In this document: positions 2,640 through 47,235 of the stretch, one piece after another
Position numbering within the stretch: position 1 is the first letter of the stretch
Layout of the letters: each line of letters opens with the position of its first letter
From: an uncultured Acidobacteriota bacterium
Lineage (GTDB): Bacteria > Actinomycetota > Acidimicrobiia > Spongiisociales > ZC4RG35
Reading direction: 5' to 3'
Assembly (NCBI GenBank): GCA_963810465.1
Contig: CAWENM010000002.1
Location: forward strand, 451,001 to 515,000
Length of the DNA stretch: 64,000 nt
The notes under the pieces: generated by a model
Told to the model about the DNA's origin: nothing
The model's database searches: none
What the model saw: only the letters and a program-made list of their open reading frames with translations
Translations under genes and position numbers: made by a program

Positions 2640-2893
2640 TTCGCCAGGAAGAAGCCGACCATCGTCCCGAGGGTGACGACAAACCCACTCAGGGTGGCGA
2701 GATACAGCCGATCGATGCGCGCATTCACCGATTCAAGGAGCTCGGCACCGAACGACGCTAGGTCGGATTTGGTGACCAACTCCGAGATGTCGTAGGCAGG
2801 AAGTGCCGCCATCAGCGTCTCCGCTCGTCGCGGGCCGAGCAATTCGGTCAACCCATTGTAGAGGTCGTGGCGATCGGATTCCGAGACGGTCAC
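2636..2893 (-). CDS. hypothetical small protein with C-terminal hydrophobic anchor
   Basis: 85-aa ORF whose last about 25 residues are hydrophobic ([18 protein letters not shown]). Its end overlaps the mdh stop convergently. No recognisable family. Confidence 0.35.
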
Positions 2894-2957: not shown

Positions 2958-3323
2958 TCAGCCGTCCGGCTCCTCCCACTCGACGACCGGCCGCACTTCG
3001 ACCCGGCCGTACCAGGCGCCCGGTATCTGCTGTGCCCATTTCAGGGCTTCGTCGAGATCTGCCACGTCCAGCAGGTAAAAGCCACCCAGGACTTCTTTGG
3101 TCTCGGCGAAAGGCCCGTCGGTGAAGACCGGCTCTCCCCCTTTGCCATTGGGGAGGTGGATGGTGGTCGCCGTGTTGGTGTCGTATAGGGCCTCACCGCC
3201 GGCCACGACGCCGGCCGCCCTCGCCGCCTCGGTGAATGCGTTGTATTCCTCCGTCACCCGTTCCAGTTCCTCGGGCGTGCCCGTTTCTTCTGGTCCATAG
3301 ATGAGTGCTGCATATTTGGGCAT
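2958..3323 (-). CDS. YciI-like (DGPF/YCII-related) small protein
   Basis: 121 aa; MPKYAALIYGPEETG start and overall pattern (FTDGPFAETKE) are typical of the YCII-related dimeric alpha/beta-barrel family. Confidence 0.65.
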   Translation of the reverse strand: MPKYAALIYGPEETGTPEELERVTEEYNAFTEAARAAGVVAGGEALYDTNTATTIHLPNGKGGEPVFTDGPFAETKEVLGGFYLLDVADLDEALKWAQQIPGAWYGRVEVRPVVEWEEPDG

Positions 3324-3405
3324 CCTTGGTTCCCTTCTCTCGTGGGACGCCTGATAGCTCTATGACGGAGAGCTCGAGTCGCTTTCGACAGGATTGTGCG
3401 TCGGT

Positions 3406-3789
3406 TCAGTACTCGACGTCGAGCTCGGACACGGCAGCGCCCCATTGCTGAATTGCGCCCTGGTGCATCATCAGCTTGGCCAGGTTGCCCGAAACCTTGA
3501 GCTTGCCCGTCATGAAGGCGCTCTGGGTGTTCAGATCGCCCTTCGAGATGGCGGTGGCGGTGTCGTAGGTCTGCTTGACGGTCACGTCGGCAGCTTCGAG
3601 GGTGCCCAGGGCCATGGTGGCGCTGCCGCCGCCAGCCTGCAGGTAGTAGTCGACTTCGCCGTCCGGTGCATCGGTCGTGCTGAATTGGATACCGAGCTCG
3701 GCTTCCCCGATGGCGTTCTTGAAGCCGTCATGGCTGTTGAGAGCGGTGGTGACTTCCGACGCCCACTCGTCACTGAGAAACTTGGACAA
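3406..3789 (-). CDS. SCP2 sterol-binding domain protein
   Basis: 127 aa; the C-terminal region AFMTGKLKVSGNLAKLMMHQG is the hallmark SCP-2 motif. Confidence 0.7.
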   Translation of the reverse strand: MSKFLSDEWASEVTTALNSHDGFKNAIGEAELGIQFSTTDAPDGEVDYYLQAGGGSATMALGTLEAADVTVKQTYDTATAISKGDLNTQSAFMTGKLKVSGNLAKLMMHQGAIQQWGAAVSELDVEY

Positions 3790-3868: not shown

Positions 3869-4720
3869 TCAGATCAACTTTGCGATCGAGGTCTCGGCGC
3901 CTCGTGAGAGCCTGGTCAGAGGTTCCCTGGGGTGTCCCGGGTCGAGACCCGCCGCCTTGGCGGCCGCCTTGACACCAGGCACGCCGTGAGCCTCGACATC
4001 GGAGCTGATGGCGCTGAGTCGCTTCTGCAGCTTTCTTGCCTTGGCGGGGTCGGCCTTGGCTGCGGCCAGAGTCTGGAGCACCAACTCGGGCACGTAGTTG
4101 CCTGACCCGGTGATGGCTCCGTGACAGCCAATGGCCATCGCCGCGGTGAGAGCTCGGGACGACCCGGAGTAGAGGAGAAAGTCCGAAGGCGAAGCATCGA
4201 TGATCGATTGGAGCCGCACCACATCGCCACTCGAGTCCTTCATGCCCACGATGTTGTCGTGTCGGGAGAGCCGCCACACGAGCTCGAGCGGGAGGTTGTA
4301 CCCGGTCACCGAAGGTACCGAGTAGAGGAAGACCGGAGCCGTCGACGTGTCCGCGATTGTCTTGTAGAACCGGAGAACAGCCTCGTCCCGCCCTCGGGTC
4401 AGGGTGGTTGGCGTCATCACCAGGATGCTGTCGGCGCCGCCTTCGATGGCCTCCTCTACCTGGTGCAACGCGACCCGGGTCGACTCGGCAGCTATCCCGA
4501 TCATGAAATGGGACTTTCGCCTACGCCCTGCCTTCACCAACCGGAATCGCTCACCGGGCTCCAGATACGGCCCTTCCCCGTTCGACCCACCGATGACAAA
4601 ACCATCGATGCCTGCTGCGGCCAGCAACCGGAGGTTGGTGGTGTGCGCCCTGGTATCGATCTCCCCGCCCCGCGTGAAGGGCGTGATCAAGGCAGGCATG
4701 TAGTCGGGTGGGGGCAGCAT
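3869..4720 (-). CDS. dihydrodipicolinate synthase / N-acetylneuraminate lyase family aldolase
   Basis: 283 aa; GGSNGEGPYL (GxxGE motif) and the Schiff-base lysine context IVGMKDSSGD match the DapA/NAL class I aldolase family. The exact substrate cannot be assigned. Confidence 0.8.
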   Translation of the reverse strand: MLPPPDYMPALITPFTRGGEIDTRAHTTNLRLLAAAGIDGFVIGGSNGEGPYLEPGERFRLVKAGRRRKSHFMIGIAAESTRVALHQVEEAIEGGADSILVMTPTTLTRGRDEAVLRFYKTIADTSTAPVFLYSVPSVTGYNLPLELVWRLSRHDNIVGMKDSSGDVVRLQSIIDASPSDFLLYSGSSRALTAAMAIGCHGAITGSGNYVPELVLQTLAAAKADPAKARKLQKRLSAISSDVEAHGVPGVKAAAKAAGLDPGHPREPLTRLSRGAETSIAKLI

Positions 4721-4745
4721 GCCGCCAGCCTAGAAGTGCTTGACC

Positions 4746-6242
4746 TCAGTCGATGAGGTGGATCGGGTTCCCGATCATGTAGGCCCGCCAGGTCGTGGTG
4801 TCGTTCACCGCCGACGGGTAGGCGTAGCTCATCTTCCACCAGCAGTTGGTGCAGGAGTACGCCGCAGGCAGATCCATCTCGAACTTGAGCCAGCGTCCGT
4901 TGTACTCACCGGGGGCCACCGATTCCTGGCAGTTGGTCCCACTGGGGATGGTTGCTTGCAGGTTCCAGGCCACGGTCGGGTTGTTGCGGCTGTAGATCCG
5001 GCACTGGCCGTCGTTGAAAACGCTCGCCGTGGGATCGACCACGGCCAGGGTCCCATTGGCGGCCGACTCCCCGGCGTCGTACAACTCCACCACGAAAGTC
5101 TTGCCGTGGTAATAGGTGGGCACTTCTGCCAGGTAGAAGGAGGTTGTTGTGCCGCTGGCGTTGTTGTAGATGGAGAAATCACCGAGGGCGAACAGCTTGG
5201 CCCCGTTGAGGTTGGCTCGGACCGAGTAACGATTCAGACCGGCCCGGTCGACCGTGGCGCCGGGGTCTTGAACTGCGATCTGGAGGACATAGATCCCGGT
5301 GCCGGACTGAGTCCAACATGCGTTGCCGTTTGGCGTCGCCCAGCCGTAGGCGGCGGTGGGGAGTACCTGCCCGGCGGGGCTGAGGGTTGCCGTACACAAC
5401 GGAGCGGCATTGTCGGAGAGGTCGAGTGGTGTGGGGTCCGGAGCGTAGAGCCTGACCACCATGGTCGGCCCACAGGTGGCGGCCGCGCTCGGGGTCCAGT
5501 CCTCGCACCCACGGTCACCGGTGCGAATGGTGTCACTGGTGGGGTTGCCACCAGAGGTGTTGAAGAATCTGAGGTCGATCCCCTGGATCGTGAAGGGGCC
5601 GGTCCCCCTCTCGATTCCGTAGAGATAACCACCCGGTCGGGCGATCGGGTTCGCGGTACAGGTGGGGACATCCGAGCTTCCGACACAGTGCGATGTGTAG
5701 GCATCACCCATGCTGGTGTCGGTGAACCATCCATGGATGTTGGCCCAGAAGTTGGGCTGTCCGGACGGGCAGCCGGCCGACCCCGGAGCGCAGCCGTTGC
5801 CGAAGTCGCCGGCTGGGCTCCCCAATTTCAACGGCGGTATGTACTCAGCTACCGCCGACCGCTCAATCGTCATCTCGTCGAAGCCGAGCGCGCCGAGGAA
5901 GAAGGTTGGCACCACGTCTTGGACCGATACACCGAGCTGGTTCGGCTCGCCGGTCACTGCACCGGAGCTGACCACCACATCGGCGTCGGCGTCGTTGTAT
6001 CCATTTTGCAGTGCGGTGGCGAGGGCAGTGCTGTTGGCCGTGCCGGTGTTGGCGGGCAGCCAGACGACACCGCCGAGGGCGGCGGCGTCCGCGGCTCGCT
6101 GTACGCGGCTGGCGTTCAGATAAAACCAAGCAAGGTCGGTGCCGAAGGCGGCCATCCCCAAGAGAAGCACCATCGACATGGCGACCAGGATCATGGCTGT
6201 GCCATTGTCCTTCTCGCGAGCTCTCTCGAACAGTTTCCTCAT
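4746..6242 (-). CDS. large TadG-like pseudopilin: TadG N-terminal domain plus about 380-aa domain with 14 cysteines (copy 1)
   Basis: 498 aa. The N-terminus (GTAMILVAMSMVLLLGMAAFGTDLAWFYLNASRVQRAADAAALGG) matches the Flp-pilus-assembly TadG N-terminal (Tad_N) domain. The remainder is Cys-rich with no vWA MIDAS motif. Start ATG 6242 overlaps the stop of the upstream TadE-like gene (ATGA). Confidence 0.8.
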   Translation of the reverse strand: MRKLFERAREKDNGTAMILVAMSMVLLLGMAAFGTDLAWFYLNASRVQRAADAAALGGVVWLPANTGTANSTALATALQNGYNDADADVVVSSGAVTGEPNQLGVSVQDVVPTFFLGALGFDEMTIERSAVAEYIPPLKLGSPAGDFGNGCAPGSAGCPSGQPNFWANIHGWFTDTSMGDAYTSHCVGSSDVPTCTANPIARPGGYLYGIERGTGPFTIQGIDLRFFNTSGGNPTSDTIRTGDRGCEDWTPSAAATCGPTMVVRLYAPDPTPLDLSDNAAPLCTATLSPAGQVLPTAAYGWATPNGNACWTQSGTGIYVLQIAVQDPGATVDRAGLNRYSVRANLNGAKLFALGDFSIYNNASGTTTSFYLAEVPTYYHGKTFVVELYDAGESAANGTLAVVDPTASVFNDGQCRIYSRNNPTVAWNLQATIPSGTNCQESVAPGEYNGRWLKFEMDLPAAYSCTNCWWKMSYAYPSAVNDTTTWRAYMIGNPIHLID

Positions 6243-6796
6243 TGTGTGCCTCGGGTATCGGGCTCGATCTGCATCACTGCAGACTCGGTCCAGTTGACGG
6301 TTGGGAAGGGGAAGATCCCGGTGATGTCGGTGTGGGAGAAAATGACTTCGACACCGAGGTCATCGAAAGTGGGCGGCACCCGGTCCCGACTGGCCGGCGC
6401 CCATGGGCAGCCGTTGACACAGCCGAGATTGGTGGCGGCGCTGTCACATGCCAGCGCTGCGGTCGGCTCGTACACGTTGACCGACCCGGTTATCGGATTA
6501 CCCGCCGCGTCGGCCTTGTAGATACGTACTTCTTCCAGGTCGCCGAAGTTGAGGTTGCAGGCGGACTCTTCTACGGCGGCGAGAATCAGATCGTCGGCGT
6601 CCTTCCCCGAGACAATGTCGTTGAAGTTCGCAGCAGCGGCGCCCGTACGAGCTCCCTCACGGGCCGAGTTGCTGACCGTGAGATAGTCCACGACGAGGAA
6701 GCCGACCTCGGAGAGCCCGATGGCCATCAGAATCAGCAGAGGGAGGACTATCGAGGCCTCGATCAGACTGGCGCCCTTCTCGAATCTGTTTCTCAT
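6239..6796 (-). CDS. TadE/TadF-like minor pilin (copy 1a)
   Basis: 185 aa. N-terminus MRNRFEKG|ASLIEASIVLPLLILMAIGL shows the class-III prepilin leader with G/xxxxE and the TadE-like hydrophobic segment. 4-nt overlaps link it to both neighbours. Confidence 0.8.
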   Translation of the reverse strand: MRNRFEKGASLIEASIVLPLLILMAIGLSEVGFLVVDYLTVSNSAREGARTGAAAANFNDIVSGKDADDLILAAVEESACNLNFGDLEEVRIYKADAAGNPITGSVNVYEPTAALACDSAATNLGCVNGCPWAPASRDRVPPTFDDLGVEVIFSHTDITGIFPFPTVNWTESAVMQIEPDTRGTQ

Positions 6797-7398
6797 GAGG
6801 TGCCGAACACCTGTGGTTCGACCTGGAAATCGGTGGAGGCGGTGAAGTCTGCGTCCGGCGTGAAGTACCCGGTGAGCCAGACGTGGGTGAAGTCGACCGC
6901 GACACCGATCCGGTCGGTGGTTGGAGCTTCGACATCACGGTCTGCCGGATCCCAGACGGGGGTGACATAGGTGGTGCGGAAGGGCTCGGGGCAAGGGGAC
7001 CAGTCACAACAACCGGGGAGGGCGGGAGAGGAGGTGCTGGCACAGCCGGTGCCTGGGGCATAGTTGTAGGTGGTCGATTCGCCTAGAGGAGTGGCTTCGA
7101 AAATCCTGGCGGTCATGCCATCCGAGATTCCCGCCGGCGACAGCGTCTGCTCGATGTCCCGGAGGATCTGTATGTCGGCCCGCGGATCGTCGCCATAGGT
7201 CGCTCCAGCCCTGGCGCCTTCACGTGCTGCATGGCTCACCGAGAGCCAGTCCTTGAAGGCGAGACCGAACTCGACGACTGCGAACAGGGTCAGAAAGAGC
7301 AGGCCGTACACAATGGCCGCCTCGACCAGCGTTGCCCCGCGCTCACGCCCGGGATCGCCCCGATCGATGATGCCCCTGATGCCTTTCACTGCCTTCAC
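6793..7398 (-). CDS. TadE-like minor pilin (copy 1b); start uncertain
   Basis: The ORF runs to a TTG at 7491, but the paralog at 9607..10185 has only a 10-aa leader before RG|ATLVEAA. A GTG at 7398 (GGTGGAAAGAC spacer) or a GTG at 7389 are more plausible starts. The TadE domain is ATLVEAAIVYGLLFLTLFAVVEFGLAF. Confidence 0.65.
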   Translation of the reverse strand: MKAVKGIRGIIDRGDPGRERGATLVEAAIVYGLLFLTLFAVVEFGLAFKDWLSVSHAAREGARAGATYGDDPRADIQILRDIEQTLSPAGISDGMTARIFEATPLGESTTYNYAPGTGCASTSSPALPGCCDWSPCPEPFRTTYVTPVWDPADRDVEAPTTDRIGVAVDFTHVWLTGYFTPDADFTASTDFQVEPQVFGTS

Positions 7399-7516
7399 GT
7401 CTTTCCACCCACCCGGGCATTGCGTTGCCCAATGACTGGGGGTACTTCGGCAGAAACGGCCAATTACTGAAGGCGATTTGGCCAAGAGCAAGGATTGGGT
7501 TCGCCAGACCCAAGAG

Positions 7517-7537
7517 AAACCTCAACCCAGAGTGGGG
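7517..7537. promoter_or_regulatory. conserved upstream element AAACCTCAACCCAGAGTGGGG, copy A (a second AGAGTGGG lies at 7551-7559)
   Basis: Shared 16-18-nt motif (AACCT[AC][AC]CCCAGAGTGG) found upstream of both pseudopilin cassettes. See copy B at 10231..10246. Confidence 0.35.
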
Positions 7538-7574
7538 AGGCGTCACTGAGAGTGGGCGAACGGTCGCCCGTCTT

Positions 7575-9074
7575 CTACTCGACCAGGTGGATCGGGTTGC
7601 CGATCATGTACGCCTTCCAGGTGGTGGTGTCGTTGACACCCGATGGATAGGCGTAATTCACCTTCCACCAGCATCCGGGTACACCACCCTCGGTACAGGC
7701 GTACTCGGGGGGCAGGTCCATTTCGAATTTGAGCCAGCGGTCGTGGTATTCCTGTGGGGTCACTGTCTCCTGGCACGGGCTGCCGGCGGCGATCGTGTTC
7801 TGCAGGCTCCAGTCCTGTCCCGGGTTGCCCCGCGTGTAGATCCGGCATTCTCCGTCATTGAAGACGGACCCGTCCGGGCTCACCATCTGCAGAGTCCCGG
7901 TTGCGGCCGACTCACCGGCGTCGAAGAACTCGACCACGAAGGTCTTGCCGTGGTAGTAGGTGGGGACTTCAGCCAGGTAGAACGCGGTGGTCGACCCGCT
8001 GGCGTTGTTGTATATCGAGAAGTCACCAAGTGCGTACAGCTGCCCGGAGGACGACTGGATCGAGTATCTGTTCAGGCCTGCTCGGTCGACCGCCCCCCCG
8101 GGGTCGACATGACGGACCTGCACCACATAGACACCCGGTCCCGACTGAGACCAGCACCCCTGGCCGTCGGGCGCCGAGAAGGCGTAGGGATCCGGGTCCA
8201 GCCCTTGGGGCAACGGCGGGATTGTGGCCTGGCAGAGGAGTGCGTTGTCAGTGACATCGAGAGGGGTTGGGTCCGGGGCGTAGAGGGCGACGTACATGGT
8301 CGGCCCACAGTCGGGAGCAGTGCTCCCTGTCCAGTCCTCACAGCCACGGTCGCCCGTGCGAATTCCATCGTTGGTCGTGTTCCCACCCGAGGTGTTGTGG
8401 AAGGCGATGTCGTTGAACTGGAGGGTGAAACTCGATCCGGACTCGATGCCGTAGAGGTATCCGGTGCTGCGGGCGAATGCGTTCTGGCTGCATCCGGGGT
8501 TGTCGTTGGCATTGGTGCACCACGACGAGTAGGCATCCCCCATCTCGTTGTCGGTCCACTTGCCATGGATGTTGGCCCAGAAGTTTGCCTGACCGGTGCA
8601 CCCTGGCTGCTCCGGATCGCACGAGTTGCCGAATTGATTATCGGGGCTGCCCAGTTTCAACGGCGGGATGTACTCGGCAACCGCGGTCCGTGAGATGTCC
8701 ATCGTGTCGAACCCGAGCACCTTGGCGAAGAAGGTCGGCACCACATCGTTGATCGTCACCTTCAGCTTGTTGGGCTCACCGGGTACCGCTGCCGGCAGGA
8801 CTTCGACATCGGTGAGGCCGTTGTCGTATCCGTTACGGAGTGCGATGTCGACTGCTGTGGCGTCGGCCGTGCCCGGCTGTCCCGGCAGCCAGATGACACC
8901 GCCGAGAGCCGCGGCATCGGCAGCCCTCTGCATCCGGCTGGCATTGAGATAGAACCAGCCGAGGTCGGTTCCGAAGGCGGCCATTCCCATCAAGACGACG
9001 AGCGATGCCGCCACCAGGGCCAATGCGGCGCCGCGGTCCTCACGTTCCTTGAATTGCCTGAAGAGGCGTCTCAT
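7575..9074 (-). CDS. large TadG-like pseudopilin with domain of 14 cysteines (copy 2, paralog of 4746..6242)
   Basis: 499 aa; same architecture as copy 1 with all 14 Cys positions and long blocks conserved (FYLAEVPTYYHGKTFVVE, WLKFEMDLP, YMIGNPIHL). Confidence 0.8.
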   Translation of the reverse strand: MRRLFRQFKEREDRGAALALVAASLVVLMGMAAFGTDLGWFYLNASRMQRAADAAALGGVIWLPGQPGTADATAVDIALRNGYDNGLTDVEVLPAAVPGEPNKLKVTINDVVPTFFAKVLGFDTMDISRTAVAEYIPPLKLGSPDNQFGNSCDPEQPGCTGQANFWANIHGKWTDNEMGDAYSSWCTNANDNPGCSQNAFARSTGYLYGIESGSSFTLQFNDIAFHNTSGGNTTNDGIRTGDRGCEDWTGSTAPDCGPTMYVALYAPDPTPLDVTDNALLCQATIPPLPQGLDPDPYAFSAPDGQGCWSQSGPGVYVVQVRHVDPGGAVDRAGLNRYSIQSSSGQLYALGDFSIYNNASGSTTAFYLAEVPTYYHGKTFVVEFFDAGESAATGTLQMVSPDGSVFNDGECRIYTRGNPGQDWSLQNTIAAGSPCQETVTPQEYHDRWLKFEMDLPPEYACTEGGVPGCWWKVNYAYPSGVNDTTTWKAYMIGNPIHLVE

Positions 9075-9610
9075 TGGCTGCCTCTGGTGTCAGGCTCGAT
9101 CTGCATCACCGCGGTCTCGTCCCAGTCGACAGTGGGGAAGGGGAAGATCCCGGTCACGCTTGTGTGAGAGAACGTGACCTCCACGCCGAGGACGTCGAGG
9201 CCGGGCGGCTCCCGATCGCGGCCGCTCGCGGCCCACGGGCATCCGTTGTCACAACTTAGGGCATTGCCCGGCGAGTCACATGAGAGACTGCCACCTGGCG
9301 AGTATTCGTTGATTGCACCCGGGATGGGATCACCGACAGCGTCTGCTTTGAAGATGCGCACCTTCTCCAGATCCCCGAAGCGGAGGTTGCACGAAGCCTC
9401 CTCCACCGCATCGAGGATGAGGGCGTCGGCAGTAGGGAAATTGGCGGCAGCCGCTCCAGTGCGAGCCCCTTCCCTCGCGGCATTGGTCACGGTGAGGTAG
9501 TCGACGACCAAGAAGCCGATCTCGGAGAGCCCGATGGCGAGAAGGATCAGGATTGGTAGGACAAGCCCAACCTCCACCAACGAGGCCCCGCGCTCGAGCC
9601 GACGCCTCAT
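9071..9610 (-). CDS. TadE/TadF-like minor pilin (copy 2a)
   Basis: 179 aa, paralog of 6239..6796 (MRRRLERG|ASLVEVGLVLPILILLAIGL). 4-nt overlaps with neighbours. Confidence 0.8.
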   Translation of the reverse strand: MRRRLERGASLVEVGLVLPILILLAIGLSEIGFLVVDYLTVTNAAREGARTGAAAANFPTADALILDAVEEASCNLRFGDLEKVRIFKADAVGDPIPGAINEYSPGGSLSCDSPGNALSCDNGCPWAASGRDREPPGLDVLGVEVTFSHTSVTGIFPFPTVDWDETAVMQIEPDTRGSQ

Positions 9611-10185
9611 GACTCGAACACCTGTGGCTCGATCTGGAAGTCAGTCACGGTGGTGAAGTCGCTGGACGGGACGAAGTAGTTGGTCAGCCACTGATGGCTG
9701 AACTGCACTTCCACTCCGATCCGATCGAGATTGGGCGTCTCGACGTCCCGACTCGAAGGGTCCCAGCCGGGCACCTGGTAGGTGTCCCGGAACGGTTCCG
9801 GACAGGGTGTCCAGTCGCAACAGCCAACGAGTGGTGGGAGACCAACCGGGGTGTTGTCGCTGCAGTCACTTCCCGGTGAATACGAGTAGACCTCGCCGGT
9901 CCCGGGGGACGCAGCATTGAAGACGCGGACGTTCATTCCGTTGGCGATCCCCGCAGGAGCCAAGGTCTGCTCAACGTCACGAAGTATCTGGATGTCGGCG
10001 GTGGGGTCGTTGCCATAGGTGGCTCCAGCACGGGCGCCCTCGCGTGCGGCGTGACTGACCGAGAGCCAGTCCTTGAAGGCGAGACCGAACTCGACGACGG
10101 CAAAGAGGGCGAGGAAGAGGAGGGCGTAGACCAACGCCGCCTCAACGAGGGTGGCCCCTCTGTCGTCCCGTCTCTCGGTTGTCAT
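9607..10185 (-). CDS. TadE-like minor pilin (copy 2b)
   Basis: 192 aa, MTTERRDDRG|ATLVEAALVYALLFLALFAVVEFGLAF, paralog of 6793..7398. ATG start preceded by AGGGAACAGGGG. Confidence 0.8.
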   Translation of the reverse strand: MTTERRDDRGATLVEAALVYALLFLALFAVVEFGLAFKDWLSVSHAAREGARAGATYGNDPTADIQILRDVEQTLAPAGIANGMNVRVFNAASPGTGEVYSYSPGSDCSDNTPVGLPPLVGCCDWTPCPEPFRDTYQVPGWDPSSRDVETPNLDRIGVEVQFSHQWLTNYFVPSSDFTTVTDFQIEPQVFES

Positions 10186-10230
10186 TTGCCCCTGTTCCCT
10201 TTGGTCCCAGCAACCACGTTCGGTGAGCTG

Positions 10231-10246
10231 AACCTACCCAGAGTGG
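10231..10246. promoter_or_regulatory. conserved upstream element AACCTACCCAGAGTGG, copy B
   Basis: About 46 nt upstream of the ATG of the first gene of cassette 2 (minus strand). Matches the element upstream of cassette 1. Confidence 0.35.
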
Positions 10247-10319
10247 TCCCCCCGAATTCGCTCAGGCTACGTCGTAGATTTTCGCTGACAAGGGGTTACT
10301 ACGCCAAGGCCAAAAAGGA

Positions 10320-11078
10320 CTACTGCGCGACCAGCCGGCGGTTTTTCACCTTCGCCTTGAGGTAATCGGCGTTCATCATTGCAATGAAGTCGATCGAGAT
10401 CGACTTCGGGCACGCCTTCTCGCACTCTCCGTGGTTGGTGCACGACCCGAAGTACTGCTCCATCACCTCGACCATGTTCTCGGTTCGTGTCCATCTCTCG
10501 GCCTGACCCTGGGGGAGGAGGTTGAGATGACTGATCTTGGCTGCGGTGAAGAGATTGGCGGCGCCGTTGGGGCAGGCTGCGACACAGGCTCCGCAACCGA
10601 TGCACGCCGCCGCATCGAAGGCGATATCAGCAGCGGGCTTGGGAACGGGCGTGAGGTTGGCGTCGGGAGCCGACCCGGTGTCAACGGTGATGTAGCCGCC
10701 GGCTTCGATGATGTGGTCGAACGAGCTGCGGTCCACCACGAGATCTTTGACCAAGGGGAATCCCGCCGCCCGCCACGGCTCAACGGTGATCGTCGACCCG
10801 CTCTCGAACTTCCGCATGTGGAGCTGGCAGGTGGCGGTGCCGAGCTGGGGGCCGTGGGCCCGGCCGTCGATCATCACGCCGCAGGAGCCGCAGATGCCCT
10901 CCCGGCAGTCGTGATCGAAGGCAACCGGCTCATCTCCCTGGTTGACCAGACGCTCGTTGAGCACATCGAGCATCTCGAGGAACGACATCTCCTCGGAGAT
11001 CCCGGCCACCTCGTAGATCTTGAACCCACCGGGCCGGTCGGGGCCTTCTTGCCGCCAGATCTGGAGGGTCACGTTCAC
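10320..11078 (-). CDS. sdhB: succinate dehydrogenase / fumarate reductase iron-sulfur subunit
   Basis: 2Fe-2S motif [10 protein letters not shown], 4Fe-4S motif [12 protein letters not shown] and 3Fe-4S motif [15 protein letters not shown] start at 11078 overlaps the sdhA stop (GTGA). The upstream part of ORF 10320..11168 is read-through of the sdhA 3' end and is rejected. Confidence 0.9.
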
Positions 11079-12997
11079 TTGTAGCTCCGGGTGCTCAGAT
11101 TGACCGCTTCGAAGGTGAGTTGCTCCTTGTTCAACTCCGGCTTCGCCGGGTCTCCGGTCCACTCCCACACCGCAACATGAGCGAAATCATCGTCCCAGCG
11201 CAGGGCTTCTCCATCCTCGGTCTGGGACTCCTCGCGGAAATGGCCGCCGCACGACTCCTCACGATGGAGAGCATCCAGGCACATCGCCTGGGCAAGCTCG
11301 AAGAAGTCCTCCACCCGACCGGCCCGTTCCAGGGTTTGATTGAGCCCGCCCGCCGTGCCCAGGATCCGCACATCGGTCTTGAACTCCTCGTACAGGGCAG
11401 GGATCTCGGAGAGCGCCTTGTTCAGCCCCGGCTCGCTCCGTGACATGCCGCAGTACTCGAGCATGATCTTCCCCAGCTCCTTGTGGAACCAGTCCACGGT
11501 GCGGCTACCCCTCGTCGACATGAACCGGTCGACCCGGTCACGGACCTCTTGTCCGGCATCGTCGAAGGCTGGGTCGTCGATGGGCACCGGCGGCTCGCCG
11601 AGGAAGCCGGCCAAATAGTCGCCGATGGTCGTGGGGAGGACGAAGTAGCCGTCCGCCAGCCCCTGCATCAAGGCGGACGCCCCGAGGCGATTGGCACCGT
11701 GGTCGGAGAAGTTGGCCTCACCGATGGCGTAGAGCCCCGGAATCGTCGTCATCAGGTTGTAGTCGACCCAGAGCCCACCCATGGTGTAGTGCGGGGCGGG
11801 ATAGATGCGCATCGGCACCTGATAGGGGTCGTCGTCGGTGATGCGCTGATACATCTCGAACAGGTTGTCGTAGCGCTCCTGGATGACCTGGCGGCCTTCC
11901 CGCTCGATGGCGTCGTGGAAGTCGAGGTACACGCCGTTGCGGAGCGGGCCTACTCCTTTGCCCTCGTCGACGATTCGCTTCACGGCGCGCGATGCCACGT
12001 CTCTCGGGACCAGATTCCCGAAAGCTGGGTACATCCGCTCCAGGAAGTAGTCGCGCTCCTCCTTGGGGATCTGGGACGCCGGCCGATCGTCGCCGATCCG
12101 ACTCGGGACCCAGATTCGCCCGTCATTTCGCAGCGACTCGGACATCAGCGTCAGCTTCGACTGGAACTCGTCCGAAGCGGGGATGCAGGTGGGATGGATC
12201 TGTGTGAAGGAAGGATTGGCGAAACCGGCTCCCTTACGGTGCGCCCTCCAGATAGCGCTGACATTGCACGCCATCGCATTGGTGGAGAGGTAGAAGACGT
12301 TGCTGTAGCCGCCCGTGGCGAGGACCACTGCGTGACCCGAATGGTTGGTGATTGCCCCCGAGATCAGGTCACGGGTGACGATTCCGACCGCCCTGCCGTC
12401 CTTGACCACCACGTCGAGCATCTCGGTGCGGGTGTGCAGCTTCACCGTGCCCGCCGCCACCTGCCGGGCCATTGCCTGGTACGCCCCGAGGAGGAGCTGC
12501 TGGCCGGTCTGGCCTCTTGCGTAGAAGGTGCGCGCTACCTGCGCCCCACCGAATGACCGGTTGTCGAGCAGCCCGCCGTACTCCCGGGCGAAGGGCACCC
12601 CCTGAGCGGTGGCCTGGTCGATGATGTTCAGCGACTCGTGGGCCAGGCGGTAGACGTTGGCCTCCCGGCTCCGGTAGTCGCCACCTTTGACCGTGTCGTA
12701 GAAGAGCCGGTACACCGAATCACCATCGTTCTTGTAGTTCTTGGCAGCGTTGATCCCACCCTGGGCGGCAATGGAGTGGGCACGGCGCGGCGAGTCGTGG
12801 AAGGTGAACACCTCGACGTCGTACCCGAGCTCGGCGAGGGAGGCCGCCGCCGAGGCGCCGGCGAGCCCGCTGCCGACGATCAGGATCTTGAACTTTCGCT
12901 TGTTTGCCGGATTGACCAGGCGGACCGAGAACTTGTGGTTGGCCCACTTGTCCTCGATTGGCCCCTCCGGGACCTTGGCATCGAGTTGCAATGTCAC
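11075..12997 (-). CDS. sdhA: succinate dehydrogenase / fumarate reductase flavoprotein subunit
   Basis: 640 aa; FAD-binding [14 protein letters not shown], the covalent-FAD His region [12 protein letters not shown], and [10 protein letters not shown]. Confidence 0.9.
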
Positions 12998-13001
12998 GCC
13001 A

Positions 13002-13730
13002 TCACCCCACGAACCCGAAGTAGACGGCGAGAGGCATGATTGCGTTGCCCACGGTCACCAGGACAGCGAGACCGATGGCGAAGTAGCGGCGGAGGTTGTT
13101 GAACCGCGGGTGGTTGATCCCGAGGCTCTGGAACATCGACCACGCCCCGTGATAGAGATGGAGCCCCAACAGGACCATGGCGATCACGTAGAAAGCGGTG
13201 ACCGGGGCGCGGGAGAAGGTGGCGATGAAGTTGGCGTACACCTCGCCTCTGGCCCAGGTCTCGGGTGCCATCGGCTGGATGCCCCAGGTCAGGTCGGCGA
13301 GATGGAAGAGGAGGAAGGCGGCGAAGATGACCCCGCTCCAGCGCATCGTTCGGCTGGCGTAGTTGGCGGCGACGTAGTTGCGCGGGCCCTGGTAGTCCTC
13401 GGGTCGGGCCCGATGGTTCATCAGGGTCAGCGAGTAGGCGGCGTGGATATGGAGGAGGAAGGCGACGATCAACCCGGTGCGGAGGATCCACAGCGCAACG
13501 TGGGCGGGGAGGAAGGGGACCAGTAGCTCGCGTAGGGCCTCGGCATAGATGTCGATGTCGGGCACCCCGTCGACGTCGGGGAGGAAGATCTTCCAGTTCC
13601 CGATCATGTGGGCAAGGACGAAGACGATGATGCCGAGTCCGGTCAGCGCCATCACCCATTTCTTGCCAACCGCCGATCGATAGAAGCCGACCGGCCAGGG
13701 TGCTCTTCTCTCTTCGATCGTGGCGGACAC
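13002..13730 (-). CDS. sdhC: succinate dehydrogenase cytochrome b (membrane anchor) subunit
   Basis: 242 aa, five predicted TM helices with conserved His residues. Located directly upstream of sdhA and sdhB. Confidence 0.75.
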
Positions 13731-13804
13731 CGGGACTCCATTATGCCAAGTCTGTGCCTCGGGAGAATCGCACGGCGTGACAAGGAGAAATCCGCCACTC
13801 GGGG

Positions 13805-13833
13805 TTGACGGCGCGCGCGGGGGGTCTTAATGT
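13805..13833 (+). promoter_or_regulatory. sigma70-like promoter of whiB: -35 TTGACG (13805-13810), 17-nt spacer, -10 TAATGT (13828-13833)
   Basis: Read directly from the sequence; about 35 nt upstream of the AGGAGA RBS (13856-13861) and ATG 13868. Confidence 0.4.
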
Positions 13834-13837
13834 CAAA

Positions 13838-13851
13838 CGTGTAATTACACG
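13838..13851. promoter_or_regulatory. 14-bp perfect palindrome CGTGTAATTACACG overlapping the predicted whiB transcription start
   Basis: Exact inverted repeat (CGTGTAA / TTACACG) between the -10 element and the RBS. Likely an operator for a dimeric regulator. Confidence 0.45.
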
Positions 13852-13867
13852 GTTGTGAGGAGACCTG

Positions 13868-14143
13868 ATGCAGAGCAAGCTCATCCAAGCCCTGGCTGTT
13901 GGTGAGCTTTCCTGGCAGGACTACGCCAACTGCCGTGGCGCCGATGCCGACCTCTTCTTCCCCGAGCGGGGGGCTTCCACCCGGAAGGCGAAGGCGATAT
14001 GCACTGCCTGCGAGGTGCGGGCGGAGTGTCTCGACTACGCAGTCGACATGGGCGAGAAATTCGGCATCTGGGGTGGTCTCAGCGAGCGTGAGCGACGTCG
14101 GGTCCGGCGCGAGCGAACCCAACGGGAACGCAAGGTCGGATAG
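13868..14143 (+). CDS. whiB: WhiB-family (Wbl) transcriptional regulator
   Basis: 91 aa; four conserved Cys (C22, C45, C48, C54), the GIWGG turn, and a basic C-terminal tail. Strong RBS AGGAGA. Confidence 0.9.
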   Translation: MQSKLIQALAVGELSWQDYANCRGADADLFFPERGASTRKAKAICTACEVRAECLDYAVDMGEKFGIWGGLSERERRRVRRERTQRERKVG

Positions 14144-14160
14144 GGGCGGCTGCGCCGCCC
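14144..14160. terminator. GC-rich hairpin between convergent whiB and bpa (GGGCGGC-tgc-GCCGCCC)
   Basis: 7-bp perfect stem with a 3-nt loop immediately after the whiB stop. No U-tract, so it would act as an intrinsic-like bidirectional terminator. Confidence 0.35.
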
Positions 14161-14185
14161 GTACTTGGTACCTGATACCGAGTAA

Positions 14186-14650
14186 CTAGAGGTAGAGGCC
14201 GGTCTGGTCCTCCTTCGGCCCGGCGGGCGAAGGTGGGATCAACGCTCTCTTTTGCATTTCCTGCAACTGGGACTGGGCAGCCATCTGCTGGCTCCACAAC
14301 GAGGCCTGGATCCCGTGGAACAGACCTTCCAGCCAGCCGATCAATTGGGCCTGGGCGATCCGCAGCTCAGCCTCACTGACACCCTCCCTGTCGAGGGGAA
14401 CCATGATCTCGTCGAACTCATCGAGGAGCTCTGGGGAGAGGATCTCTCTCAACTCGTCGAGTGATCGGGAATGGACGTCGGCGAGACGTCTCCGTCCCCC
14501 GTCATCGAGCGGCGCCTGCCGGACCTCCTCGAGCATCGCACGCGTCATCGATGCGATCCGAATGAGCTTCGTGGGCTCGGAGACCGGCGGCTCCTTCTGT
14601 TCCTCCTCCGGCACCTGCTCGACCGCGTCCGGCTTTACCGCTTCTTCCAT
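14186..14650 (-). CDS. bpa: bacterial proteasome activator (Bpa/PafE, Rv3780-like)
   Basis: 154 aa. The block SEAELRIAQAQLIGWLEGLFHGIQASLWSQQMAAQSQLQEMQ and the preceding TKLIRIASMTRAMLEEVRQAPLDD closely resemble my recollection of M. tuberculosis Bpa. It ends ...TGLYL, a variant of the Bpa C-terminal GQYL docking motif. Confidence 0.75.
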   Translation of the reverse strand: MEEAVKPDAVEQVPEEEQKEPPVSEPTKLIRIASMTRAMLEEVRQAPLDDGGRRRLADVHSRSLDELREILSPELLDEFDEIMVPLDREGVSEAELRIAQAQLIGWLEGLFHGIQASLWSQQMAAQSQLQEMQKRALIPPSPAGPKEDQTGLYL

Positions 14651-14728
14651 GACCTCAGCCTACAAAGCTCCCGTTTTCGCGCACCCATGTCGGTCCCTAC
14701 GCCTATAACGGTGCGCGAGAACAGCTGA

Positions 14729-15724
14729 TTAGGCCCTGACCTCGTCGCGCATGAAGGCGATGTAGGCGGCGGCGAACATGACGGCCGTGAGGGCGACCAG
14801 GATGGCGATCTGGGGCCAAACCACTGCCAGGCTCTGGGTCAGGTTGAGCTCGGAGACGATGGCTCGGTCCACTTGTTCCACGGTGACCAGCCCGACGGTG
14901 CGCACCTCGGGGTCGAGCAGCACGCTCGAGCCCTGTTGAAAGAGGGTCACCGGCGACAGTTGTGACACGGTCTGGGCGGTTTGCTGGTAGGCGATCTCGG
15001 CCGCATCCGACCCATCTCTCGGGCTGAGGACACTGGCCACGGCGCTGAAAATGAAGGACCCGAACAGCGTTAGCACCAACCAGATGCCGAGGGGGATCAT
15101 GGCCGAGGTCGACGCCCGTTTCGATAGGACCGAGGTCAACGTGGCCAGGGCTTGCCAGAACCCGACATAGATGATGGCGAAGACCAGCCACACCGCAAGC
15201 CGTGAGATCTCGGTCGGCGTGGGCACCACCCCGAGTCTGAGGATCCCGATGCCAGACACGAACAGCACGAGGGCGGTGAGCATGATCGACACCACGGTCA
15301 GCCCGGCCACGAACTTGCCCAGGATCACCTCATCGCGGTGAATCGGCTGGGAGAGGAGCCGGGGCAGAGTCCCTTGTGAGCGCTCGCCGCTGACCGCGTC
15401 GAACCCGAACATGATCCCCAGGAGCGGGGCCAGAAACCCGACGAAGACGATGAGTGGGAACGGGACAGGGTCGGCGGTCACGGTGAAGAGCTTGAGGAAC
15501 AGCGCCGTGATCCCCTGGGCGTTGGGGGCGACGTCACGGATCCCGCCCGAGGCGGCGAAAACCGCGGCGGCGGTCGCGATTCCGAGCACCCCCATCAGGA
15601 CCACGAAGCGTCCCGAGAGCAGATGATCGGCGATCTCCTTTTGCGCCACCGCCCTCCATCCACCGACCCTGGTGGATTCGACGGCAGGGACCTCCTCGGC
15701 GACGACGTCTGCGTCAGTGGTCAT
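14729..15724 (-). CDS. ABC-2 family transporter permease
   Basis: ATG at 15724 (MTTDADV...) overlaps the ATPase stop (ATGA). Six TM segments and ABC-2 features. The longer upstream ORF portion is rejected. Confidence 0.8.
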   Translation of the reverse strand: MTTDADVVAEEVPAVESTRVGGWRAVAQKEIADHLLSGRFVVLMGVLGIATAAAVFAASGGIRDVAPNAQGITALFLKLFTVTADPVPFPLIVFVGFLAPLLGIMFGFDAVSGERSQGTLPRLLSQPIHRDEVILGKFVAGLTVVSIMLTALVLFVSGIGILRLGVVPTPTEISRLAVWLVFAIIYVGFWQALATLTSVLSKRASTSAMIPLGIWLVLTLFGSFIFSAVASVLSPRDGSDAAEIAYQQTAQTVSQLSPVTLFQQGSSVLLDPEVRTVGLVTVEQVDRAIVSELNLTQSLAVVWPQIAILVALTAVMFAAAYIAFMRDEVRA

Positions 15725-16671
15725 ACCGTCGCCTCCTCTTCTTCCTCGATCTCGAAGTACCGGCGATAGATGGTCTCCAGGTCTTCGTCGAGGCGATGGA
15801 CGCCGATGACGTCGACCCCTTTCGAGACGAGACCGCTCACCGCTGGTGCCAGCGACTCTGAATGGAGGTCGGCCACCCAAGACCCGGGCGCACGACCCGG
15901 GGCGACGCCGGTGACAGTCCCGAGAGACTCCAGGTCGGCTCGGCTCTTCGACGGGTCGCCACCCAGACGGAACTCGACCCGGATGTTGCCTTCCTTGTCG
16001 ACGGCGGCGAGCTCGTGCGGTGTGCCTTGGGCGACCACCTTGCCCCGGACGAAGATGGCGACCCGGTCACACACCGCCTGCACCTGGTGGAGGAGATGGC
16101 TGGCGAGGAGAACAGTTACGCCCTCCTCTTTGGCGAGCCTTTGGATCAGGTTGAGCATCTCCACCACGCCCTCGGGGTCGATGGCGGTGGTCGGCTCGTC
16201 CAGGATGAGGATCGACGGGCCTTTGACCAGGGCATCGGCCACCCCGAGACGTTGCTTCATGCCGCGCGAATACTCCCCGGCCGGCTGATCACCGGCTTCG
16301 CCCAGACCTACGAGGTGGAGAAGCGACTCGATGAGGTCCTCGTAGTCGTCGAGACCATTGAGGCGGGCGGTGAAGCGCAGGTTCTCCCGCCCGGTCATCG
16401 GGTCGTAGAAGCCCACGGCGTCGGGCAAATACCCGACCTTCCGCTTGACCTCGATGGGGTTCCATCTCGGATCGAGGCCGAGGACTTCGATCTTCCCTTT
16501 CGTCGGCTCGACCAGGCCGAGCAGCATGAGGATGGTCGTCGTCTTCCCGGCACCATTCGGTCCGAGGAGCCCGAAAACCTCGCCGGCGTCGACGTCGAGG
16601 TCGAGCCGGTCGACGACGGTGTGCTCGCCGTAGGTCTTGGTCAGCTTCCGGCTGCGGATGGTCGAGGCCAT
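15721..16671 (-). CDS. ABC transporter ATP-binding protein
   Basis: Walker A GPNGAGKTT, ABC signature YSRGMKQRLG, Walker B ILILDEPT. Confidence 0.9.
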   Translation of the reverse strand: MASTIRSRKLTKTYGEHTVVDRLDLDVDAGEVFGLLGPNGAGKTTTILMLLGLVEPTKGKIEVLGLDPRWNPIEVKRKVGYLPDAVGFYDPMTGRENLRFTARLNGLDDYEDLIESLLHLVGLGEAGDQPAGEYSRGMKQRLGVADALVKGPSILILDEPTTAIDPEGVVEMLNLIQRLAKEEGVTVLLASHLLHQVQAVCDRVAIFVRGKVVAQGTPHELAAVDKEGNIRVEFRLGGDPSKSRADLESLGTVTGVAPGRAPGSWVADLHSESLAPAVSGLVSKGVDVIGVHRLDEDLETIYRRYFEIEEEEEATV

Positions 16672-16672
16672 G

Positions 16673-17851
16673 TCAGCGACGGCCGAAGCGCCGGAAGACC
16701 CAGGCCAGACCGGCGAGAGTCAGGGCGATGACGGCGATCCCGACGAAGCCCCAGATTGCGGAGGGGTTGACAGTCGTCCGCACCTCCATCTGGGCGTCGG
16801 CCTGCTCGTGGGTGGCGGTGAAGCTGATCACGTAGTCGCCGGCGACCGCTTCCTCCGACGGCGTGATGGTTGCCACGACCGGCACTGTCTCACCTGCCGG
16901 GATGGTGACCTCCTGGCTGTCGAAGGCGACCTCCCACCCCGTAGGCGGGGTGACCCCGACCACGACATTGTCGAGGTCGGCAGTCCCGGTGTTGGTCAGG
17001 ATGATCTGGAAGTCACTGGTGCTACCCACTGTCACCTCGGCGTTGAGGCGCTGGTCGGCGGTGGTCATCTCCAGGGAGTAGGAACCGGTCACCTCCACGA
17101 TCATCTCGGTCTCAACAGTCGACCCCGGTGCAGTTGCCACGAGTGTGACCGGGTACTGGGCGGCCTCGGCCTGGACCGGCGGGGTCACTGCGACGTTGAT
17201 CGTCTCGGTGCCACCGGCCTCGACCAGGACGGTGGAAGCCTGGGCCTGACCGGAGAGCTCGGCGGTGACATCCCATCCCGATGGGGCGGTGGGGGTCAGC
17301 TCGAACTCGAGGTCGGCGGGGGTGCCGTTGGACAGCTCGACATCGAAGGTGACCTCCTCACCGGCGGGGGAGCGAAGACCCGGGAAGTTGGGAGTCAGGG
17401 TCACCTCACCGCCGGCCAGGGCGGAGACCCGGACCGCGATCGGCAGGGCGACAGTCTCGGCGCCACCGGAGGCGTTGATTGTCATCGGGAACTCGCCTTC
17501 GGTCACGCTGGTCGGAACCGTGACGTCGAAAGTGAGTTCGGGCTCGAGTCCGGGTCCGGCTGTTACCGAGTCGACCTCGAAGCCGCCGCCTCGGAAGGCG
17601 GCTGTCCAGCCTTCGGGCACACCGTCCACGGCGAGGGCGACCTCGACCTGCGCCGGTGCGCCGATCGTGAGCGCGAAGCTGACCTGGTCCCCAGGCTCGA
17701 CCGCGACCGACGGAAACGGCGTGCTGACGGTCAGCGCGGTGGCGGGGAGAGTCGTCGGTGTCTCCTCCTCCGTCTGCGCCAGAGCCGCAGGGGCGAGAGC
17801 CAGCGTGGACACCACGGCCAACGCCACCAGCAATTGCCTCTTCGACACCAA
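16673..17851 (-). CDS. secreted repetitive beta-sandwich protein (NEW3/COG1470-like) with C-terminal TM anchor
   Basis: Start taken at TTG 17851 or GTG 17848, giving signal peptide VSKRQLLVALAVVSTLALAPAALA|QTEE. It carries repeated about 100-aa T/V/E-rich units and a C-terminal TM helix plus RRFGRR. The 5' part of the longer ORF (16673..18313) overlaps the transglutaminase gene and is rejected. Confidence 0.6.
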   Translation of the reverse strand: MVSKRQLLVALAVVSTLALAPAALAQTEEETPTTLPATALTVSTPFPSVAVEPGDQVSFALTIGAPAQVEVALAVDGVPEGWTAAFRGGGFEVDSVTAGPGLEPELTFDVTVPTSVTEGEFPMTINASGGAETVALPIAVRVSALAGGEVTLTPNFPGLRSPAGEEVTFDVELSNGTPADLEFELTPTAPSGWDVTAELSGQAQASTVLVEAGGTETINVAVTPPVQAEAAQYPVTLVATAPGSTVETEMIVEVTGSYSLEMTTADQRLNAEVTVGSTSDFQIILTNTGTADLDNVVVGVTPPTGWEVAFDSQEVTIPAGETVPVVATITPSEEAVAGDYVISFTATHEQADAQMEVRTTVNPSAIWGFVGIAVIALTLAGLAWVFRRFGRR

Positions 17852-17955
17852 GGTGATCAGAGCTCCTTCTTCATCGGTTTTGGGCACAAACACTGGAAAT
17901 GACCGCAGAGACCCTAAATCGATGATAAATCCATTGAGAAAACGGTGCGCCGCCG

Positions 17956-18828
17956 CTACTGCTCGGCCATCTGCGACAGACGCTCCCGGCTGATGCGCAC
18001 CTGGACCCCCAGCTGGTGGTCCGCCCCGCCGTGATAGACGCCACGCAACGGCATGACGTCCTGGTAATCCCGGCCGTGTCCGATCTTGATATGAAGCTCG
18101 CCGACAGGCTGGGCATTGGTCGGATCGAGACCCCACCATCCGTGCCCGGGCACGAAGACTTCGAGCCAGGCATGGGTCTGCACGCTCAGCTCTGGCTCGT
18201 CCGGGGCCACTGCCGAAGTCTGTTCGGCGGCGTACAGATAGCCCGACACATACCGGGCCGGGATGCCGATGCTGCGATACATCGCGATGCCGAGATGGGC
18301 GAAATCCTGGCATACCCCCTTGCCCTGAGACATGACATCCGCCACGTCGACGCCGACGTATGTGGCGCCCGGCACGTAGTCGAGCGTTGACGTGACCTTG
18401 CCAGAGATAGCGGTTGCCACGTCCAGCACTTCAACCGCGCCACCGACCGCCTCTCTGGCTGCCTCTTCGATCGGCTCGTCCCAGATCGCGTGGGGCGAGG
18501 GGCGGAGAAAGCTGGACAGCTCCCCACGCACCGACTCGAGCGCCTCGACGGTTGCCTCACTCGATGGGCTCGCCGGGGCTGCGGTGTCGACCTTCGACTC
18601 GGCCATGATCCGTAGAGCACGGTGAGGCTCGACGATCCCGAACTCGTCGACTCTGGTCCCCCAGTAGTCGGTGTAGGAGTGGACCCGGGCCGTCGGGGTG
18701 ACCTCGACCCGATACGCGGCCAACTGCTGATGGTCGTCATTGGCGGGACAGGCTCGGAGCAGGTTGTGCGACTCCCAGGCCGGCTCCCCGTAGGTGAACT
18801 CGTTCAGATAGCGGATCTCGAGTCTCAT
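17956..18828 (-). CDS. transglutaminase-like cysteine protease domain protein (with bacterial transglutaminase N-terminal domain)
   Basis: ATG at 18828 (MRLEIRYLNEFTYGEP). Cys/His/Asp catalytic motifs GKGVCQDFAHL, HAWLEVF and GLDPTN. The start overlaps the alpha-E stop (ATGA). Confidence 0.8.
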   Translation of the reverse strand: MRLEIRYLNEFTYGEPAWESHNLLRACPANDDHQQLAAYRVEVTPTARVHSYTDYWGTRVDEFGIVEPHRALRIMAESKVDTAAPASPSSEATVEALESVRGELSSFLRPSPHAIWDEPIEEAAREAVGGAVEVLDVATAISGKVTSTLDYVPGATYVGVDVADVMSQGKGVCQDFAHLGIAMYRSIGIPARYVSGYLYAAEQTSAVAPDEPELSVQTHAWLEVFVPGHGWWGLDPTNAQPVGELHIKIGHGRDYQDVMPLRGVYHGGADHQLGVQVRISRERLSQMAEQ

Positions 18829-21195: not shown

Positions 21196-21242
21196 CGGCG
21201 AAGTGTATTGAGGGCGTTGTTCCCGAATTGTCTCGGTGCAGG

Positions 21243-21620: not shown

Positions 21621-21727
21621 GCTCCAGGTATCGGCCTGGAATCGTGTTTGGTGAAGCCCGAGGCGAACCCATTCCAAACCAACGCCAGATGCCGTACGCT
21701 CATCTCCAGTAACGAAGAGGACGACAG

Positions 21728-22460: not shown

Positions 22461-22514
22461 CTACTTTCGCGCTCTCGACATCGAATGCAGGTCCGACGAT
22501 AGGTTCACGGCGAA

Positions 22515-27349: not shown

Positions 27350-27361
27350 AAGGAGGTTGAC

Positions 27362-42066: not shown

Positions 42067-42119
42067 CTGTTCTTGCTACCTCCTCAGGAGACGATACGCA
42101 GATTCGGTGATCGGCCGGG

Positions 42120-42578: not shown

Positions 42579-42589
42579 CGGCGGCGAGG

Positions 42590-47194: not shown

Positions 47195-47235
47195 GGGGTA
47201 GGTCCGTGCCACCCGTTAACCTGTGGTGATCGCGA

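Follow-up and report, generated by a model that had tools for sequence, protein, structure and literature searches.

Among described systems, the closest to the locus considered here is the Kil Tad pilus of Myxococcus xanthus, a species that carries four paralogous kilLMN clusters, homologous to tadE, tadF and tadG, encoding the Cys-rich Tips1-4 (Herrou et al. 2025, PMC12075869). Genetic evidence showed that these clusters, only one of which belongs to the core kil cluster while three lie outside it, provide interchangeable tips of a single Kil Tad pilus (PMC12075869). The kil/tip families defined there by profile hidden Markov models (HMMs; tip1-4) were reported to be restricted to Myxococcota, and for other bacteria only TadEFG genes located inside tad loci were considered (PMC12075869). 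In this work we describe a 64,000-nucleotide stretch of contig CAWENM010000002.1 (assembly GCA_963810465.1), hereafter the window, which carries two tandem three-gene cassettes encoding TadE-type and TadG-type proteins. The cassettes are separated from the core tad locus (22515-28741) by 12.3 kb, measured from 10185 to 22515, in agreement with the 12 kb of the original prediction. Judged by homology and analogy, they are most plausibly additional or interchangeable pilus-tip or minor-pilin modules.

The likeness to the Kil Tips extends to several features. Both systems comprise three-gene TadE/TadF/TadG-like clusters, several paralogous ones per genome, which mostly lie apart from the genes of the core machinery; both have proteins with many cysteines and a large subunit that joins a pilin-like N-terminus to a variable C-terminal domain without a solved homologue; and in both a single pilus machine is, or in the present case would be, served by several clusters. 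The differences are equally clear. The present host belongs to a monoderm lineage of uncultured Acidimicrobiia from soil, whereas Myxococcus is a predatory diderm; the present cassettes stand in tandem at one chromosomal hot spot; neither a gene resembling a type III secretion system (T3SS) component nor a counterpart of the T3SS*-like partner turned up among the window's open reading frames (ORFs) scanned; and tip formation is known in Myxococcus, whereas here it is predicted. The gene orders TadE-TadE-TadG and TadE-TadG-TadE and the C-terminal domain exchange described below are not among the features noted in PMC12075869. Since the families of that study are reported to be restricted to Myxococcota, the cassettes are regarded as analogues or distant homologues of KilLMN, and orthology is unlikely. 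The earlier suggestion that duplicated cassettes of giant TadG proteins were not known from any described Tad system is therefore out of date, having been overtaken by the Myxococcus Kil Tip clusters (PMC12075869). A search of the literature for Tad, Flp or TadG in Acidimicrobiia brought up no paper, and what is plausibly new is a multi-tip Tad arrangement in a monoderm uncultured lineage, a variable tandem locus, and an uncharacterised TadG C-terminal domain.

Three further systems offer useful comparisons. The canonical TadE, TadF and TadG proteins of Aggregatibacter actinomycetemcomitans, Pseudomonas aeruginosa and Caulobacter (CpaJ/K/L) share with the cassettes the families PF07811 and PF13400/PF09977 and the G/xxxxE site on the small proteins, but are encoded once, inside the tad operon, whereas the window holds duplicated satellite cassettes besides a small core set. 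The Rv3654c-Rv3660c-type Tad locus of Mycobacterium tuberculosis resembles the core locus of the window, which has a TIGR03819 ATPase, a small Rv3654c-like protein and no secretin; the satellite proteins, in contrast, score far under the NF041390 and TIGR03816 cut-offs and are much larger (180-500 versus ~100 aa). Finally, the type IVa minor-pilin/PilY1 sets of M. xanthus are likewise reported to be paralogous priming and tip sets (Treuner-Lange et al. 2020, PMC7541494) that serve one machine, each with a large adhesin-like subunit, but belong to another pilus class and to unrelated families (four GspH-K-like minor pilins plus PilY1).

Six minus-strand ORFs fill positions 4746-10185 as two tandem sets of three genes, module B (10185-7575) and module A (7398-4746):

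9607-10185, minus strand: B1, TadE-type pseudopilin of 192 aa (PF07811, E = 1.7e-11; 4 Cys; leader MTTERRDDRG, then ATLVE)
9071-9610, minus strand: B2, second TadE-type pseudopilin, 179 aa (PF07811, E = 1.1e-11; leader MRRRLERG, then ASLVE)
7575-9074, minus strand: B3, large TadG-type protein, 499 aa (PF13400, E = 2.5e-8; PF09977, E = 3.4e-5)
6793-7398, minus strand: A1, TadE-type pseudopilin, most likely 201 aa from GTG 7398 (PF07811, E = 1.9e-11; leader ending ...GRERG, then ATLVE)
6239-6796, minus strand: A2, second TadE-type pseudopilin, 185 aa (PF07811, E = 2.5e-10; 69% identity to B2)
4746-6242, minus strand: A3, large TadG-type protein, 498 aa (PF13400, E = 3.7e-7; 64% full-length identity to B3)

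Gene order is the same in both modules, as originally predicted, and consecutive genes within a module overlap by 4 nt (9607-9610 and 9071-9074 in B; 6793-6796 and 6239-6242 in A), which indicates translational coupling. The predicted extent of module A, 7491 to 4746, stands at its downstream end and needs correction at the other: position 7491 is the ORF limit, and A1 most likely starts at GTG 7398, because this codon and the upstream GGTGGAAAG are conserved in orthologues and because gene calls on three other assemblies give a protein of 201 aa.

Searches with profile HMMs place all six proteins in TadE or TadG-type families. PF07811 (TadE; Pfam gathering score 22.9 bits) was exceeded by four of four small proteins at 40.8-45.1 bits (E 1e-10 to 2e-11), and PF13400 (Tad; 22.3 bits) by both large proteins, A3 at 30.8 and B3 at 34.5 bits; Tad_C (PF09977; 22.1 bits) scored 25.2 bits in B3, over the cut-off, and 17.4 bits in A3, under it. 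Each small protein has a short basic leader, a G/xxxxE prepilin-peptidase site (RG|ATLVE in A1 and B1, G|ASLIE in A2, G|ASLVE in B2) and then a hydrophobic helix, and residues G10 and E15 of the TadE-type proteins are invariant across 34 family members. In the TadG-like A3 and B3 the conserved Gly is present and the Glu at +5 is absent. The original description of two TadE-type minor pilins with prepilin motifs and a roughly 500-aa protein with a TadG N-terminal domain is thus borne out for both modules. The label Cys-rich applies in a limited sense: the three proteins of either module contain 4, 4 and 12 cysteines at positions that match between the paralogues, and 12 Cys in ~499 aa amount to 2.4% for the large proteins. 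Against the small pseudopilin models NF041390 (cut-off 40 bits) and TIGR03816 (50.95 bits) the best scores of the satellite proteins were only 21.5 and 19.0, and the satellite proteins are not members of those mycobacterial-type families. Pfam detected neither a vWA nor another known domain in the large protein.

Structure prediction divided the large subunit into two parts. An AlphaFold2 monomer model of B3, built from 69 sequences covering both cassette types, reached a mean predicted local distance difference test score (pLDDT) of 89.1 and a predicted template modelling score of 0.82. After the leader it shows a 47-residue helix (residues 14-60), followed at residues 67-135 by a short helix and three strands that match the Tad_C region. 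This N-terminal pilin-like module (~1-135) is joined to a C-terminal domain of ~360 aa (~136-499) that carries the 12 conserved Cys and is predicted to be nearly all beta. The corresponding model of B1 (pLDDT 86) begins, at the point where cleavage is predicted, with a 48-residue N-terminal helix, to which are added another helix and a beta-sheet. A solved structural relative of the C-terminal domain was sought and none was found. When this part alone was searched with phmmer against 1.84 billion representative proteins, it matched 941 clusters (50% identity); among the full-length hits listed (460-730 aa) essentially every match was C-terminal, and PF13400 was present at the N-terminus of 10/10 larger distant relatives checked. 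The C-terminal domain is a TadG-specific module of an uncharacterised family.

Comparison with the loci of relatives, which are given L-numbers (L001, L053 etc.), showed that this domain can be replaced independently of the rest of its cassette. In L053 (10001-11507) the large subunit of cassette B is a mosaic: over residues 1-160 it shows 80-100% identity to its counterparts in the window and in L007, whereas the segment ~200-500 has 19-65% identity to window B3 (7575-9074) and 57-80% to its counterpart in L058 (10001-11503). B1 and B2 of L053 are unaffected and retain 80-100% identity to the window and L007, and the same break is seen at the DNA level in L037. The C-terminal domain therefore behaves as an exchangeable unit, as one would predict were the N-terminal module to dock to the partner proteins and the C-terminal domain to be left free as the functional part. 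Positions fixed differently between the A3 and B3 clades number 11 of 499 without clear clustering, and a specificity region is not localisable in this way.

The two cassettes are the product of an old duplication. Proteins of A and B share 69%, 69% and 64% identity for genes 1, 2 and 3, and the DNA is 74-77% identical over aligned columns (~76% overall), close to the 75-80% first estimated by eye. B2 is 35-39% identical over its full length to B1 and A1, so genes 1 and 2 are themselves older paralogues of each other. A tree of 124 large subunits, built by neighbour joining, resolves A and B as sister clades that both include orthologues from many genomes, and some genomes retain A alone while others have B alone, often beside a different cassette. 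This topology places the duplication before the divergence of many species-level lineages and implies differential loss thereafter. Furthermore, both copies are maintained by purifying selection, yet evolve faster than their housekeeping neighbours: the ratio of non-synonymous to synonymous substitution rates (dN/dS) is 0.14, 0.13 and 0.26 between the paralogues of genes 1-3, with dS >1, and 0.06-0.18 among orthologues, compared with 0.02-0.05 for the neighbouring sdhB and DHDPS. Age and selection are accordingly as the original prediction had them.

The proposed search of related genomes for the cassette and its copy number took the form of a census of 38 species-representative loci having both flanks, which found cassettes at the same site. 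Between sdhB and DHDPS there is one cassette in 7 loci, two in 29 and three in 2, and because two or three cassettes occur in 31/38 loci, the arrangement of the window is typical of its lineage. The window pattern, TadE-TadE-TadG twice, occurs in 12 of the 38; in ~17 a TadE-TadE-TadG cassette is paired with one of the order TadE-TadG-TadE. The latter order defines type C of the relatives, whose large subunit shows 33% full-length identity to B3. Type C either replaces A or occupies a second site between SCP2 and YCII, as beside the SCP2 gene in L001 (15807-18381) and L002 (16746-19245). The sdhB-DHDPS site is a cassette hot spot. No third cassette was found in the window by tblastn, and its SCP2-YCII spacer (3323-3406) measures only 83 nt. 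Homologues of B3 number 429, the source names among the matches listed being all Acidimicrobiia or Actinobacteria, and several are already named 'TadG family pilus assembly protein' at NCBI. In L033, which has cassette A only, the sequence upstream of A1 (3345-3625) still resembles the 3' end of B3 followed by the hairpin described below, and this points to deletion of cassette B in that lineage. Among close relatives, cassette genes are split or frameshifted in L041 (5913-11540) and L084 (5279-5838). The apparent decay of cassette B in L041 was not accepted as evidence of pseudogenisation: the whole region aligns to the window at 91.5% with 47 small gaps, and these could be sequencing or assembly indel errors or real mutations.

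The spacer between B3 and A1 measures 176 nt, and it and the region upstream of B1 hold the following elements:

10236-10246, minus strand: CCACTCTGGGT copy, 51-61 nt ahead of the B1 start codon (ATG)
7525-7535, minus strand: CCACTCTGGGT copy within the 176-nt spacer that precedes A1
7554-7569, minus strand: hairpin GGGCGA-CCGT-TCGCCC, 6-bp GC-rich stem, 5 nt past the B3 stop codon

The exact 11-mer CCACTCTGGGT has two occurrences in the whole window, one upstream of each cassette, and across loci 50 of 136 cassette-upstream regions contain its CCACTC core on the sense strand, the expectation being 8.6%. Weaker copies of a ACCACTCTGGGTAG-like motif lie at 7545-7555 (minus strand), 2685-2695 (plus) and 13795-13805 (plus), and one-mismatch copies are present between mdh and YCII and upstream of sdhC; the motif may be a promoter or operator element. 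The hairpin after B3 is possibly a terminator or a transcript-stabilising stem. Its folding energy of -12.2 kcal/mol (z = -1.9) is only marginally better than that of shuffled sequence, its stem is retained in orthologues, including L033 without cassette B, and scans of 4500-10500 for sigma-70 promoters and T-run terminators gave nothing above chance and did not call it. Together, motif and hairpin point weakly to a separate promoter for A and to a regulator common to both cassettes.

From homology, operon structure, the selection pattern, modular domain exchange and the Myxococcus precedent, we infer that A and B are paralogous minor-pilin operons giving alternative tip or priming complexes for one Tad machine, a reading to which we assign slightly better than even chances. 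Each cassette would supply a 1:1:1 Tad (type IVc) minor-pilin set of two TadE-type proteins and one large TadG-type protein. A TadV-type prepilin peptidase would cut the TadE-type proteins behind the conserved Gly and so remove their short basic leaders, and all three proteins would bundle in the membrane through their long hydrophobic N-terminal helices, giving a heterotrimer that rests on the platform formed by TadB and TadC in the core machinery (22515-28741). This heterotrimer would prime polymerisation of the Flp pilin and, for that reason, would come to lie at the distal tip of the pilus, where the 360-aa, presumably disulfide-stabilised beta-rich C-terminal domain would be exposed as a substrate- or cell-recognition module; the even number of cysteines per protein and their conserved positions were counted in favour of this scheme. 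Because A and B differ at about one third of their residues, one machine could build two different pilus tips, and cassette gain and loss together with recombinational exchange of C-terminal domains would vary the repertoire of the lineage.

Other readings of the same genes must be weighed against that of alternative tips. Both cassettes might instead cooperate in the same pilus or assembly cycle, one priming and the other acting as adhesin, or the two forming a joint hetero-oligomer with the core pseudopilins. Retention of the tandem pair in many species, with TadE-TadE-TadG twice in 12 of 38 loci, is in keeping with such cooperation, as are the same motif upstream of both cassettes, which suggests common regulation, and the few sites fixed differently between the A and B clades. 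Many relatives, however, keep only A, only B, or B with a cassette of the other gene order, so that neither copy is obligatory for the other; the modules are separated by a spacer with a hairpin, and in Myxococcus single Tips suffice for function. We therefore regard cooperation as unlikely. The proteins might also be membrane-anchored surface or assembly factors rather than pilus subunits, their TadE/TadG N-termini serving as signal-anchors that display the C-terminal domain or stabilise the machinery. This we hold to be rather improbable, since the TadE-type partners, whose translation is coupled to that of the large protein, carry canonical G/xxxxE sites, the C-terminal domain is only found fused to TadG N-termini, and structural models and genetics in Myxococcus put the TadG homologue KilN at the tip.

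Two simpler accounts concern the duplication itself. It might be redundant, providing dosage or back-up, with one copy drifting towards loss, and the differential loss of A or B in relatives and the B3 remnant upstream of A1 in L033 could be read in this way. In the window, however, both copies have intact frames, dN/dS remains far below 1 after synonymous saturation (dS >1), and orthologues of each copy are conserved over many species, which makes redundancy very improbable. An assembly artefact through an expanded or collapsed repeat is the sole alternative that is effectively excluded: assemblers are not confused by copies as diverged as these, whose DNA is only ~76% identical; three separate ENA assemblies of the same organism contain the exact B3 protein within the six-gene layout, on contigs of 168, 222 and 473 kb; and between sdhB and a DHDPS-family gene the order B then A recurs in metagenome-assembled genomes of unrelated studies and in many other species, as the original prediction, which had discounted an artefact, would have it.

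The machinery that the alternative-tip reading calls upon is encoded on the plus strand by the core tad locus, whose features are as follows:

22515-23195, plus strand: CpaB/RcpC-like protein, first core tad gene (SAF PF08666 above cut-off; RcpC PF16976 below cut-off; TIGR03177, E = 1.7e-13, below cut-off)
23192-24295, plus strand: TadZ/CpaE-like ParA/MinD-family ATPase (CbiA PF01656)
24208-25563, plus strand: TadA/CpaF secretion ATPase, given by its ORF limits, the start probably lying downstream of 24208 (T2SSE PF00437, E = 2.6e-26; TIGR03819, E = 1.6e-56)
25458-26426, plus strand: TadB-like platform protein (T2SSF PF00482, E = 1.4e-3, weak)
26165-27349, plus strand: TadC-like platform protein, ORF limits, start probably ~26420 (T2SSF PF00482, E = 3.5e-14)
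27362-27541, plus strand: presumed Flp major pilin, 59 aa (by position and by …DDRG then LNTAE plus a hydrophobic stretch only)
27541-28328, plus strand: two small presumed TadE-like pseudopilins, ~27541-27903 and ~27900-28328 (by position and N-terminal features only)
28328-28741, plus strand: small TadG/Rv3654c-like protein, ~137 aa (PF13400, E = 1.5e-7; TIGR03816, E = 1.6e-4, below cut-off)

The set of flp, tadE, tadF and tadG-like genes attributed to this locus is confirmed for the small PF13400 protein and lacks profile support for the remainder: Pfam and NCBIfam gave nothing significant for the presumed flp and the two small TadE-like ORFs, the best match being PF07811 at E = 0.099 and the second TadE-like ORF having no hit. 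On sequence features these ORFs appear to be a divergent, poorly modelled pilin set. No match to a secretin family was found among the core-locus ORFs scanned, which fits a monoderm host, and no A24 prepilin peptidase (TadV/CpaA) among the window ORFs scanned.

The affiliation of the loci also deserves comment. A WhiB gene was called in the syntenic block of L001-L003 and of L085, a contig of the window's own organism, and together with the Rv3654c-type core tad locus it indicates Actinomycetota. L005, L007, L010, L014, L018, L020 and others, from one large project on metagenome-assembled genomes, are titled 'uncultured Acidobacteriota bacterium', and syntenic records of other projects are titled Acidimicrobiia; the 'Acidobacteriota' titles look like a labelling problem and the loci look actinobacterial. 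Elsewhere in the window Rfam identified three tRNAs only. Those for Gln(CTG) and Glu(CTC) lie immediately downstream of the tad locus (28814-28989, plus strand), and tRNA-Glu(TTC) follows a glutamyl-tRNA synthetase gene (45770-47194, plus), the two falling within 45770-47311. A tandem pair of META-domain (PF03724) paralogues occupies 59333-60097 and 60109-60954 (both minus), and two long ORFs, 35494-37197 (minus, 567 aa) and 41656-42795 (plus, 379 aa), had no Pfam match at E <=1.

A bolder proposal, which we advance tentatively and consider less probable than not, is that the sdhB-DHDPS(-SCP2-YCII) region forms a dedicated pilus-tip diversity island, in which whole cassettes of both gene orders are gained, lost and duplicated and the recognition domain is recombinationally swapped between lineages at the boundary of the pilin module, giving strain-specific binding. 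If so, multi-tip Tad systems would for the first time be known beyond the predatory Myxococcota and, also for the first time, from a monoderm, and strain-specific specificities would arise from one conserved machine in a manner reminiscent of the shuffling of phage tail fibres and receptor-binding domains. The C-terminal domain family of TadG-type proteins, with its 941 clusters, offers a target for structural and binding studies, and dozens of genomes with two gene orders, one to three cassette copies and at least one domain swap form a natural set that could locate the specificity of TadG-type proteins. Should the cassettes indeed encode alternative tips, the principle of an adaptable tip would be a general means by which Tad pili diversify their function rather than a speciality of predators, and would reach the abundant, uncultured monoderm Actinomycetota of soil.

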